DNA of 5,582 bases from a virus. Location: IMG/VR virus record IMGVR_UViG_3300045988_041489, positions 1 through 5,582 of that record. One strand, 5' to 3'. A model generated the notes under the pieces. The model saw only the letters and a program-made list of their open reading frames with translations. It was not told the DNA's origin and did not search any database. Numbering within the stretch: the first letter of the stretch is position 1; every line of letters starts with the position of its first letter. This document shows, piece by piece, positions 2,746 through 5,582 of this stretch. Made by a program: the position numbers and the translations under genes.

Positions 2746-3693
2746 ATGGCAGTACTTGAAACACTTGCAGGACTTTTGCCGATCATAACCGGAGGTGTAA
2801 GTCTCGCTGGACAACTTGGAAAAACCATAAAAGACCTGACAAGCAGCACAACCAGCAGCGGCAACACAAGCAGCGGCATGGGGCAGATGGGCATGAACAC
2901 GAGCTTCGGAAACACCGCAAGCAGCGGAAGCATGACCAGCAACACAACAACCAGCGGAAGCAACTGGCAGCAAGGCAGCATATCAGGAATCGCAAGCATA
3001 CTCAACAGCGCTCTGGGGACACCAACAGGAAACAACGCGACAGGGGCAGCAAACTGGAACGCGGGACAGGCAACCACGGCAAACAACCTGCAAACAGGTA
3101 TGTGGTCACTTGGCAACCTGATGAACCTAGGCAGCAATCTAGCAGCAAACGCAATGAATGCGGCAAGCCAGAGCAGCGCAATGCGATACAACAGCGCAGA
3201 AGCGCAAAAACAAAGAGACTGGACAGAGCGCATGAGCAATACGAGCTACCAACGCGGCGTCGCAGATCTCAAAGCGGCAGGTTTGAACCCGGTGTTGGCA
3301 GCATACAACGGCTACGGAGCAAACACAGGAGGCGGAGCGGAAGCGAGCCTGGGAGCGCAAAGCTACAGTCACACACAGGCAAACAGCATTCCGGCAGCAA
3401 AAATGGCCGAAATGCAAACAATGTACGACTACGGAAACAATACATCGCAATTTTTACAACAGGCGCAAGCAGCCATCAACGCAGCACGGCAAATGGGTGG
3501 CTACAATGAAGAAAAAGCATTCCGACAAATCACAAGCGACATCGTGAGCAGCAGTGCAAAAGATGTCAGCGCACTGGCAAAAACAGAGCAGAGCACAACA
3601 AGCGGAAACACCAGCACGACCGACCACGGAACAGAAAAAAATTACGCGCTATCCGGAAAGGGTCAGCTGGAATACCAGAGCAAAAAAAAGTAA
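2746..3693 (+). CDS. VP2: Minor capsid / DNA pilot protein VP2
   Basis: The 315-aa protein has the conserved core [37 protein letters not shown], which is the microvirus VP2/H signature (Q..R.....MSNT.YQR...D...AGLNP.LA). It has a hydrophobic N-terminus ([22 protein letters not shown]) followed by an S/T/N/G-rich low-complexity region. An SD (AGAGG, 2734-2738) precedes the ATG at 2746. It lies directly after VP1. Confidence 0.9.
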
Positions 3694-3722
3694 TTGAAAA
3701 ACACAGGAAAGAGGTGTATAAT
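3694..3722 (+). promoter_or_regulatory. Near-consensus sigma70-type promoter: TTGAAA (-35), 17-nt spacer, TATAAT (-10)
   Basis: TTGAAA is at 3694-3699 and TATAAT at 3717-3722, with exactly 17 nt between them and TG immediately 5' of the -10. The element starts right after the VP2 stop (TAA, 3691-3693) and lies 45 nt upstream of the next ATG at 3767. Confidence 0.6.
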
Positions 3723-3766
3723 ATGGGTGTATCAATCGTACACTTTGCCTAGAAAGGGGCACAACA

Positions 3767-3949
3767 ATGAAAAGTCAAGTAGTAGAAAGAATGAACATAA
3801 ACCTAACCGTGAAAGAAGTAGAAAACTTAAACTGGCTCTATGAATACTTCAAATGCGTAAAGTATAACAAAAGTGACTGCGTAAGAGAAGCAATAAACCA
3901 GCTGACGTTCATACTAAAAAACGAACACGGCGAAAACAAGCAAATTTGA
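3767..3949 (+). CDS. Ribbon-helix-helix (CopG-like) small protein encoded directly upstream of rep; candidate transcriptional regulator
   Basis: The 60-aa ORF reads MKSQVVERMNINLTVKEVENLNWLYEYFKCVKYNKSDCVREAINQLTFIL.... It has a beta strand (NINLT), helix 1 (VKEVENLNWLYEYF) and the classic RHH helix-2 signature S-D/E-x-x-R-E-A-I-x-x-L. An SD (AAGGGG, 3754-3759) lies 7 nt before the ATG at 3767. The in-frame ATG at 3791 is an alternative start. The stop is TGA at 3947-3949. Confidence 0.55.
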   Translation: MKSQVVERMNINLTVKEVENLNWLYEYFKCVKYNKSDCVREAINQLTFILKNEHGENKQI

Positions 3950-3964
3950 CGCGGTTGCACCGCG
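3950..3964 (+). other. Short GC-rich hairpin immediately after the RHH gene stop (CGCGGT / loop TGC / ACCGCG)
   Basis: It has a 6-bp perfect stem (3950-3955 pairs with 3959-3964) and a 3-nt loop. No T-tract follows it, so it is not a canonical intrinsic terminator. Confidence 0.35.
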
Positions 3965-4019
3965 CCAAAGGGAAACAAAAATCCATGGCAAAAAATAAGC
4001 GGGAGCTAAATTTTGTGTC

Positions 4020-4060
4020 AGTGGGGGGAATAGACATCAAGAGGGTCTATTCCCCCCACT
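4020..4060 (+). repeat. Perfect 16-bp inverted repeat (hairpin) with 9-nt loop in the RHH-rep intergenic region
   Basis: AGTGGGGGGAATAGAC (4020-4035) is the exact reverse complement of GTCTATTCCCCCCACT (4045-4060). The loop is ATCAAGAGG (4036-4044). It ends 11 nt before the rep SD (GGAGG, 4072-4076). No T-tract flanks it on either strand. Confidence 0.85.
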
Positions 4061-4088
4061 CTCCCCGGGAAGGAGGAAACGTCCATAC

Positions 4089-5237
4089 ATGGCATGCGCA
4101 AGACCGAACATCAGAATTTTTAGCGAGAACGAAAAAGACTATTTTGCGCCGCTGAACTGGTACATACAGCACGGAAAAAAAAGAACCGGCGAACCGGACA
4201 TGATAGCGACACAAAAAAGACGCGAACGAGAACTGAAAGAGATGATCAAAGACGGCAAAGCAGTGCTGTGCCCATGCAAACATTGTAATGGCTGCATCAT
4301 GGACAGGGGCAAGAGCTGGGCAAACCGCATGGAAATGGAACTGCCATACCACGATCAAGCATGGTTTTTGACATTAACATACGATAACGAACACGCACCA
4401 ATGAGCTACGACCAAGGTCTGGGCGTGGATGAACTGACAGGCGAAGTGGTAACGGAAAACATGACGCTCGACTATACAGACTTAGAAAAATTTTGGAAAA
4501 GGCTCAGACGCTGGACAGAGTACAACAACAGAGCGGTCTACATAACCTACAACGGCAAAAAGAAAAACGATCTAATGTATTACGCTGGCGGCGAATACGG
4601 AGGAAAAACACACAGACCGCACTATCATGCAATAGTATACGGCTTAAAAATCGAAAAAGAGGAGCTGAAGGAGTACAAAAAAGCAAAAGGCAAAGTATAC
4701 TATACCTGTGAATGGCTCACGAAACTATGGGGCAAAGGCTTTGTGATCATCGGTGCAGCGGAATGGGAAAGCATGGCATATACAGCAAGATACTGCACAA
4801 AAAAGAGCTATGGAGCAGGCGCAAAAGAATATTACAAAAACCTGGCAATACAGCCAGAGGATAGCAGAATGTCAACCAATCCGGCAATCGGATGGAGATA
4901 TTACGAGGAACACAAAGAGGAAATCTATAAAGAGGACAAAATACAACTCAAGAAAGGAAGAAGCTGTAAGCCGCCTACATACTTTGACAAGCTCTTTGAC
5001 CTGGAACACTCAGAAGCCGAACCGCTGACGGAAGAAGAATGCAGAGGAATTGAAGATGTAATAATAAAAGCCGAATCCGAAGAACTGAAAGAAATAAAGC
5101 GAAAACGGCGAAAACTCGCCAATGACGCGTTATTTAGTCAGCTCAAACAGACCGGCCTAACTATGCAAGAGTATTATAAACTAAAAGATCAGCGGAATCA
5201 AGAAAAATTTAAACAGCTCATAAGAGAGGAAGTATAA
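4089..5237 (+). CDS. VP4: Replication initiation protein VP4 (HUH rolling-circle endonuclease, phiX174 A-protein superfamily)
   Basis: The 382-aa protein has an N-terminal M.C..P and the Cys cluster CPCKHCNGC. Motif 1 is FLTLTYD. The HUH motif is PHYHAIVYG, with HYH encoded at 4620-4628. The two-tyrosine catalytic motif is YTARYCTKK, with Tyr codons at 4779 and 4791 spaced as in phiX A (YVAKY). An SD (AAGGAGG, 4070-4076) lies 12 nt before the ATG at 4089. Confidence 0.92.
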   Translation: MACARPNIRIFSENEKDYFAPLNWYIQHGKKRTGEPDMIATQKRRERELKEMIKDGKAVLCPCKHCNGCIMDRGKSWANRMEMELPYHDQAWFLTLTYDNEHAPMSYDQGLGVDELTGEVVTENMTLDYTDLEKFWKRLRRWTEYNNRAVYITYNGKKKNDLMYYAGGEYGGKTHRPHYHAIVYGLKIEKEELKEYKKAKGKVYYTCEWLTKLWGKGFVIIGAAEWESMAYTARYCTKKSYGAGAKEYYKNLAIQPEDSRMSTNPAIGWRYYEEHKEEIYKEDKIQLKKGRSCKPPTYFDKLFDLEHSEAEPLTEEECRGIEDVIIKAESEELKEIKRKRRKLANDALFSQLKQTGLTMQEYYKLKDQRNQEKFKQLIREEV

Positions 5238-5315: not shown

Positions 5316-5350
5316 GACCGGGACGGAGTAAAACTCCGCTCCGGTCTTTT
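5316..5350 (+). terminator. Terminator-like imperfect hairpin plus TTTT downstream of rep
   Basis: GACCGGGACGGAG (5316-5328), loop TAAAA, then CTCCGCTCCGGTC (5334-5346). That gives 11 Watson-Crick pairs, one G-U and one A/C mismatch, followed by TTTT (5347-5350). The short U-tract makes it at best a weak intrinsic terminator. It could instead be an ssDNA structural element. Confidence 0.4.
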
Positions 5351-5419
5351 AAGGTGCGCAGGGCTCCGCGCTGCCGTTTACAGAAGAAGCTCCTGTTATC
5401 GGAAAAGACATAAAATCAG

Positions 5420-5457
5420 CAATGGCACGGAAAATGCCATTGTTTTTTTTTTTTTTT
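5420..5457 (+). terminator. Rho-independent terminator: 8-bp stem, 7-nt loop, T15 tract
   Basis: CAATGGCA (5420-5427) is the exact reverse complement of TGCCATTG (5435-5442). The loop is CGGAAAA. Fifteen consecutive T follow immediately (5443-5457). All genes are co-oriented with it. The T-tract portion recurs at 2-16 because of the terminal overlap. Confidence 0.75.
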
Positions 5458-5582
5458 GGTAAAATTAGAGAAAAAAAAGGAGGTGCAGCCATGAGCTACC
5501 GTAAAACCGTAAATCCGAAAACCGACAAGAAAGTATTTACCAATACCGCAAAGAAAACGAAGAAAATCAACGTCAACCCGAA
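5442..5582. repeat. Terminal direct repeat, copy 2 (identical to 1..141)
   Basis: As for copy 1. The offset of 5441 nt defines the unit genome length. Confidence 0.9.
5491..5582 (+). CDS. Redundant partial copy of the 39-aa basic J-like gene (same locus as 50..169, truncated by the window end)
   Basis: It is identical to 50..141 and lies inside the terminal overlap. It is not a second gene in the real circular genome. Confidence 0.7.
   Translation, partial: MSYRKTVNPKTDKKVFTNTAKKTKKINVNP

Follow-up and report, generated by a model that had tools for sequence, protein, structure and literature searches.

In phage phiX174, the origin of viral-strand synthesis is a linear 30-nt gene A protein site (CAACTTG^ATATTAATAACACTATAGACCAC) that lies inside gene A and is not presented in a hairpin. 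The phiX174 record annotates this origin at 4306, within CAACTTGATATTAATAACACTATAGACCAC, where CTTGAT occupies 4302-4307 and a second block, GACCAC, begins 15 nt later. The same nick-site core, CTTGATA, is conserved in the double-strand origins of pC194/pUB110-family plasmids (PMC10378824), which are served by initiators of the same rolling-circle superfamily but of a different Rep family (Rep_1), lack a comparable long perfect hairpin with a covarying stem, and belong to replicons that are not packaged. In contrast, the origins of pT181 and pMV158 plasmids and of CRESS-DNA viruses display a conserved nick motif in the loop of a stem that is kept by covariation, next to rep and with an adjacent recognition sequence; in CRESS-DNA viruses this motif is the nonanucleotide NANTATTAC at the loop apex, with iterated Rep-binding repeats beside the stem. 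Within the microviruses, Olo Ndela et al. 2023 (PMC9865509) reported intergenic hairpins beside Rep in reekeekee- and roodoodooviruses, which belong to other subfamilies; these have identical loops and compensatory stem substitutions, and their function was left open, although negative-strand priming was suggested. No nick-motif match, orientation polymorphism or link to composition was reported for them. Kirchberger and Ochman 2020 and Kirchberger et al. 2022 do not mention a hairpin, a stem-loop or an origin, and further literature searches, which did not extend to older subscription papers on Chp1, Chp2 and SpV4, found no description of a gokushovirus origin or hairpin, of antisense packaging, or of negative-sense microviruses.

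The window analysed here is the whole 5,582-nt stretch of IMG/VR record IMGVR_UViG_3300045988_041489. Its first and last 141 nt (1-141 and 5442-5582) are identical, and it is therefore a circularly permuted complete gokushovirus-type microvirus genome of about 5441 nt. All recognisable genes are on the + strand: a small basic VP8/J-like ORF (50-169), VP5 (380-625; PF20577), the VP3 scaffold (612-1109), VP1 (1093-2733; PF02305), VP2 (2746-3693), a 60-aa ORF (3767-3949), and rep, encoding VP4 (4089-5237). VP4 matches PF23343 (REP_ORF2-G2P, E 1.6e-14) and is an HUH rolling-circle initiator, in which H178-Y179-H180 and two tyrosines three residues apart (Y231 and Y235) are invariant in 8 diverse homologues. 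The phiX174 gene A protein, a homologous HUH Rep of the same virus family, has the same arrangement.

A perfect hairpin lies just upstream of rep. The arms at 4020-4035 (AGTGGGGGGAATAGAC) and 4045-4060 (GTCTATTCCCCCCACT) are exact reverse complements over 16 bp and enclose a 9-nt loop at 4036-4044, which reads ATCAAGAGG on the + strand. The observation made in the sequence-only reading, namely that this is the longest perfect inverted repeat of the genome and lacks a T-tract, is thus confirmed. The next longest perfect stem is 8 bp, and in 100 dinucleotide-preserving shuffles the longest perfect stem averaged 7.5 bp and none reached 16. Folding z-scores are -6.4 (DNA, + strand), -5.0 (RNA) and -5.2 (DNA, - strand). 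The hairpin ends 9 nt before the rep Shine-Dalgarno sequence AAGGAGG (4070-4076; purine-rich in relatives), or 11 nt before GGAGG, and 28 nt before the rep ATG at 4089. A 56-aa ATG ORF (3985-4155) spans it in the window, but this ORF has no conserved counterpart in relatives and no credible Pfam hit, so the region is effectively noncoding. A promoter-like site (TTGAAA-17-TATAAT, 3694-3722) matches the consensus at 11 of 12 positions and, on this consensus match only, probably drives the small ORF at 3767-3949 and rep, in which case the hairpin would also be transcribed within the rep leader.

The sequence-only reading proposed that the hairpin is a candidate ssDNA origin or regulatory structure, and named as a test whether the stem is kept by compensatory changes while the loop is conserved. 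Two GenBank relatives about 88% identical to the window (MG945373 and MT135351) are invariant over the hairpin and its flanks, which suggests constraint but is uninformative for covariation. A Rep-anchored search of IMG/VR gave 41 loci with Rep 50-97% identical. Every locus with upstream sequence carries a 14-19 bp hairpin ending 20-28 nt before the rep ATG. At least eight different stem sequences occur, all perfectly or almost perfectly paired, whereas the loop is conserved as [A/G]TCAAGA[G/A] and the 5' flank TTGTGTCA is invariant in 32 clade members. This is the outcome that the sequence-only reading named as its test. In two pairs of loci (L004/L048 and L007/L051; L numbers are our labels for the compared loci, genomes and contigs), the G and C homopolymer runs of the two arms differ in length (G6 versus C5 and G6 versus C8), which breaks the outer stem and is probably homopolymer sequencing or assembly error rather than biology. 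A MAFFT alignment of the hairpins misplaced gaps in two rows, and pairing was therefore computed directly and with a covariance model.

The element is not restricted to this clade. A locus search with a Rep profile picked clade-specific peptides and returned the same clade again, whereas a VP1-profile search added about 60 divergent genomes, in nearly all of which the strongest hairpin carries YYTCTTGAT, either on the coding strand or inverted. A direct hairpin scan of cultured gokushoviruses showed that the longest perfect hairpin of Chlamydia phage Chp2 (2904-2941, between VP3 and ORF8) is CTAGCGTATAACAG [TCTACTTGAT] CTGTTATACGCTAG, and that SpV4 has TGGGGCATAT [ATTACTTGTTATA] ATATGCCCCA; in both, the motif is on the coding strand. 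In the window, the corresponding sequence is the reverse complement of the loop, CCTCTTGAT. Written on the motif strand, 112 genomes (64 distinct elements), with one element per genome, share a single architecture: a stem of 9-19 bp, the loop YYT(C/A)CTTG(A/T)T, the complementary stem arm, and (G)TGACAC(C/A)A, 0-4 nt after the stem. Nine of about 121 genomes had no element at the thresholds used; some of these are cut contigs (for instance L140), and L122 has only a weak match. Hairpin hits in L159, L172 and L185 were discarded because they lack the flank motif. Many of the IMG/VR genomes come from one large project.

Stem mismatches are almost absent among the 64 distinct elements, and the three G.T-type wobbles all fall on the motif strand, with no A.C mismatches there. 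On a 24-member seed, all 12 modelled stem pairs show double-sided changes (77 cells), and the covariation score is 0.79, compared with 0.15 in shuffles (0 of 500 reach the observed score) and 0.06-0.14 with slid partners. The seed was chosen for perfect pairing, so the percentage of paired positions is circular, but the compensatory changes are not. A covariance model built from this seed finds exactly one site per genome in 100 genomes, scores the motif strand about 25 bits above the opposite strand, and has no match in phiX174. The model did not reach Chp2, SpV4 or phiMH2K, whose elements were found by the direct hairpin scan.

In comparison to the phiX174 origin, CTTGAT is present in the window on the - strand, within the loop, and CTTGA is invariant in 24 distinct elements. 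The match to the CTTGATA consensus covers 6 of 7 positions, as the seventh base is G here (CTTGATG). CTTGAT occurs three times on the - strand and never on the + strand of the window, and only this copy sits in a hairpin. The stem arm at 4045-4060 is the 5' arm on this strand and the arm at 4020-4035 is the 3' arm; the latter is followed immediately by GACACAA (TTGTGTC on the + strand, 4013-4019), a candidate Rep-binding ('key') sequence by inference. This flank lies 16 nt from CTTGAT, similar to the 15 nt that separate CTTGAT from GACCAC in phiX174, giving a second block GAC(C/A)(A/C)C 15-16 nt downstream in both systems. However, the anatomy differs from that of phiX174, the only characterised family member: here the element is an intergenic 16-bp hairpin rather than a linear site within the rep gene, the spacer between the two blocks is one arm of a covarying stem (14-19 bp in this clade), and in this clade the motif lies on the strand opposite the genes. 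The manner of presentation resembles that of the pT181, pMV158 and CRESS-DNA virus origins, but the Rep families differ and the loop (CCTCTTGAT / ATCAAGAGG) is unrelated to NANTATTAC. Only a single conserved TGACAC(C/A)A block, and no iterated repeats, was seen beside the stem when the elements were compared, in the absence of a dedicated search for iterons.

The position and orientation of the element differ between clades. It lies just upstream of rep in the window's clade, downstream of rep in the clade of L111-L126, and between VP3 and ORF8 in Chp2. In Chp2, SpV4 and many gut phages CTTGAT is on the coding strand (here the '+' class), whereas in the window's clade and two other clades it is on the opposite strand (the '-' class). 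The asymmetric TGACAC flank is inverted together with the loop, which rules out a simple loop flip; the whole element of about 60 nt is inverted. With all genomes oriented so that the genes are on the + strand, coding-strand AT skew separates the classes without overlap: -0.118 in the '+' class (range -0.200 to 0.001, n=24) and +0.357 in the '-' class (range 0.232 to 0.417, n=87). At VP1 4-fold sites, the A/C/G/T frequencies are.094/.216/.135/.555 in the '+' class and.354/.240/.282/.124 in the '-' class, so that both AT skew and GC skew change sign; the window itself has A.357 and T.156. There are two partial exceptions. The coding-strand element of phiMH2K is weaker, with an 11-bp stem around GGACCCTACTTGTTGTAA, and this phage is nonetheless A-rich at 4-fold sites (A.46, T.27) and has an unusually strong genome-wide GC skew of -0.21. 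Similarly, L164 has the element on the coding strand but A.46 and T.38. Both break the AT-skew rule, although both still have C>G, as in the '+' class. The 11-kb contig L137 was excluded from the composition statistics; it, L121 (7.3 kb) and L052 (7.0 kb) are clearly longer than a microvirus genome and may be concatemers, prophage fragments or misassemblies.

Recent substitutions at 4-fold sites, inferred by parsimony on shallow branches, show opposite asymmetries for all four complementary pairs in every one of the five clades tested. The C>T/G>A rate ratio is 4.8 and 10.4 in two '+' clades and 0.37, 0.39 and 0.32 in three '-' clades; G>T/C>A is 4.95 and 7.8 versus 0.51, 0.25 and 0.76; A>T/T>A is 2.9 and 11.6 versus 0.43, 0.47 and 0.59; and T>C/A>G is 1.8 and 3.3 versus 0.66, 0.76 and 0.50. 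The asymmetry in the '-' class is weaker (about 2.6-fold) than in the '+' class (5-10-fold), and the parsimony spectra are approximate, although parsimony bias under skewed composition works against these results rather than for them. Excess C>T and G>T are the expected signatures of damage on exposed ssDNA, and ssDNA phages favour NNT codons through C-to-T pressure on the viral strand (PMC3278643). In both classes the strand that carries the CTTGAT loop is T-rich and carries the excess of C>T and G>T changes, which is indirect evidence that it is the strand displaced as ssDNA. The phiX174 origin likewise lies on the strand that is T-rich and prone to C>T change.

A VP1 tree, built by neighbour joining without support values, needs three orientation changes, and at least two or three independent changes are inferred overall. 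L110 and L124 ('-') are nearer in both VP1 and Rep to '+' genomes than to the window's clade. L123 groups with them but has CTTGAC on the coding strand, with nearly zero AT skew and intermediate 4-fold composition, as expected shortly after a flip; this may indicate a recent orientation switch that is not yet at compositional equilibrium. Gokushovirus VP1 genes also sit inside bacterial contigs of 38-180 kb (L155, L157, L169, L185, L188, L190, L165, L167 and L170, assigned to Christensenella, Clostridia, Eubacteriales, Muriventricola aceti, Phascolarctobacterium, Desulfovibrionaceae, Intestinirhabdus and Sutterella), which points to integrated prophages and provides host assignments. The element is conserved in prophages of Christensenella and other Clostridia, Veillonella and Phascolarctobacterium (Negativicutes), Intestinirhabdus (Enterobacteriaceae), Burkholderiaceae and Sutterella (Burkholderiales), Desulfovibrionaceae and Elusimicrobia. 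Both orientation classes include prophages of Clostridia-type hosts, and thus neither host phylum nor host-driven codon usage explains the flip in composition.

The reading best supported by these data, held with moderate confidence, is that the hairpin is the viral-strand (rolling-circle) origin of this gokushovirus, a hairpin-presented form of the phiX174/pC194-type origin that is shared across Gokushovirinae. In this view, the inverted repeat would extrude in supercoiled replicative form or in ssDNA as a stem-loop that presents CCTCTTGAT in the loop of the strand complementary to the genes. Rep would recognise the loop and the adjacent GACACAA, nick at CTTG^AT (by analogy, between 4038 and 4037 on the - strand), and remain attached to the 5' end while the 3'-OH primes rolling-circle synthesis; after one round, the regenerated hairpin would be cut and rejoined to release a circle. 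As the motif is on the - strand here, the strand that is displaced, exposed and packaged would be antisense to the mRNAs. The structure, its covariation, its single copy per genome, the conserved loop and flank, the two orientations, and the link between orientation and mutational strand asymmetry are established by the present analysis. In contrast, cleavage by Rep and its covalent joining to the DNA, the exact nick position, the role of GACACAA, and the polarity of virion DNA are inferred from sequence alone, rather than from nicking or strand-specific virion data, and Microviridae are described as positive-sense. The interpretation offered by the sequence-only reading is therefore partly supported. 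An origin-type role on single-stranded DNA, with Rep nicking in the loop, agrees with it, but the informative loop sequence is CCTCTTGAT on the complementary strand rather than ATCAAGAGG on the coding strand, and the position just upstream of rep is clade-specific. Additionally, the alternatives it offered (an RHH operator, an mRNA stabiliser or RNase III site, occlusion of rep translation, and a host-primed complementary-strand origin) fit poorly, as the element is inverted relative to transcription in different clades and its sequence is conserved across phages of unrelated host phyla.

Of the competing explanations, a complementary-strand origin that recruits host RNA polymerase, primase or a primosome, as with the phiX174 PAS, the G4 origin, the M13 minus origin or plasmid sso elements, is unlikely as the sole role but remains possible, perhaps in addition. 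Hairpins are typical of such origins, this role was suggested for the hairpins of reekeekee- and roodoodooviruses (PMC9865509), and the element sits on the strand with ssDNA-type damage, where such an origin must be. However, host priming signals differ between lineages, and even phiX174 and G4 differ within E. coli, whereas the loop and flank are conserved in phages and prophages of at least six bacterial phyla or classes, including those of Chlamydia and Spiroplasma, which argues for recognition by a conserved phage protein rather than a host factor. Additionally, the loop matches the Rep nick consensus, and the stem carries no conserved promoter-like -35/-10 boxes. It is also unlikely that the hairpin is another element specific to the packaged strand, such as a packaging or termination signal or a binding site for VP5, VP8 or the procapsid. 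The element is strand-specific, single-copy and conserved across the subfamily, and the composition data identify only the exposed strand, not the nick site; yet phiX174 packaging is not known to need any signal other than the origin-bound A protein, the CTTGAT match and phiX174-like spacing to the second block would be left unexplained, and no other candidate origin was found on either strand.

An RNA-level regulator of rep, acting on translation, mRNA stability or processing, or partial termination, is very unlikely, although the strong RNA fold, the proximity to the rep Shine-Dalgarno sequence and the promoter-like site upstream leave room for local side effects on rep expression in this clade. 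Neither position nor orientation relative to the rep transcript is fixed between clades, and the RNA loop would be UCUUGAU in some and AUCAAGA in others. The stem is followed by CTCTCCCCGGG on the + strand and GACACAAAATTT on the - strand, neither with a T-tract, and the full hairpin was not called by a terminator scan. An Rfam scan of the whole window at E<=1 gave no match, and an RNA-level role cannot explain the link with strand composition. A double-stranded operator or recombination site, for example for small RHH-like proteins or Xer-type recombinases, is the least likely. The element is palindromic, a small ORF lies just upstream (3767-3949), and some gokushoviruses integrate at dif (PMC7062461). 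However, the arms vary freely provided they stay complementary while the asymmetric spacer is the conserved part, which is the opposite of an operator or a dif site; the small ORF is not present across the range of the element, and arms of 16-19 bp are too long for half-sites.

If the favoured reading is correct, several gokushovirus clades, including this one, which is abundant in pig and human gut, would be negative-sense ssDNA phages in which inversion of one ~60-nt element relative to the gene block decides virion strand polarity. This is judged slightly more likely than not. The textbook description of Microviridae as positive-sense would then be incomplete, strand-specific quantification and probe design for ssDNA viromics would need revisiting, the extreme A-rich codon usage of these clades would be explained by mutation rather than by host adaptation, and leading-strand synthesis would run head-on against transcription. 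Gokushoviruses are among the most abundant ssDNA phages in gut and environmental viromes, and their replication origin is not defined in any of the literature searched. A single recognisable element (a covarying stem, a CTTGAT loop and a TGACAC flank) would make that origin directly testable with purified VP4, would give a sequence-only rule for the strand that a metagenomic microvirus packages, and would be the natural cis-acting part for minimal gokushovirus replicons.

Additional structures and ORFs were observed near the element and elsewhere in these genomes. In one '+' clade (for instance at 3638-3667 in L127 and 3839-3868 in L129), a second conserved hairpin, GAGACCCACGG-TCTAAACG-CCGTGGGTCTC, lies about 30 nt upstream of the origin hairpin and is a candidate for a complementary-strand origin or a Rep accessory site. 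In the window, a T16 homopolymer at 2-17 (= 5443-5458) on the coding strand, A16 on the proposed packaged strand, is preceded by a small hairpin at 5421-5441 (arms AATGGCA and TGCCATT, loop CGGAAAA) inside the ~250-nt noncoding region after rep, and could be a terminator or part of a complementary-strand origin. An imperfect G+C-rich hairpin downstream of rep (5316-5351; GGACCGGGACGGAG..CTCCGCTCCGGTC) is followed by TTTT and looks like the intrinsic terminator of the rep transcript. A further hairpin at 3945-3969 (CGCGGT-TGC-ACCGCG, extendable to 11 pairs) lies directly after the stop codon of the ORF at 3767-3949; it is followed by a T-rich tail only on the - strand, which has no genes, and is conserved in the two close relatives with one loop change. 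The ORFs at 3767-3949 and 202-390 (60 and 62 aa) look by eye like ribbon-helix-helix proteins but have no Pfam match, and the former is conserved in MG945373 and MT135351 with mostly third-position changes. MG945373 additionally carries an insertion of about 180 nt (within 3700-3950 of that genome), with an extra small ORF and a duplicated promoter-like leader, upstream of the small ORF that precedes rep.
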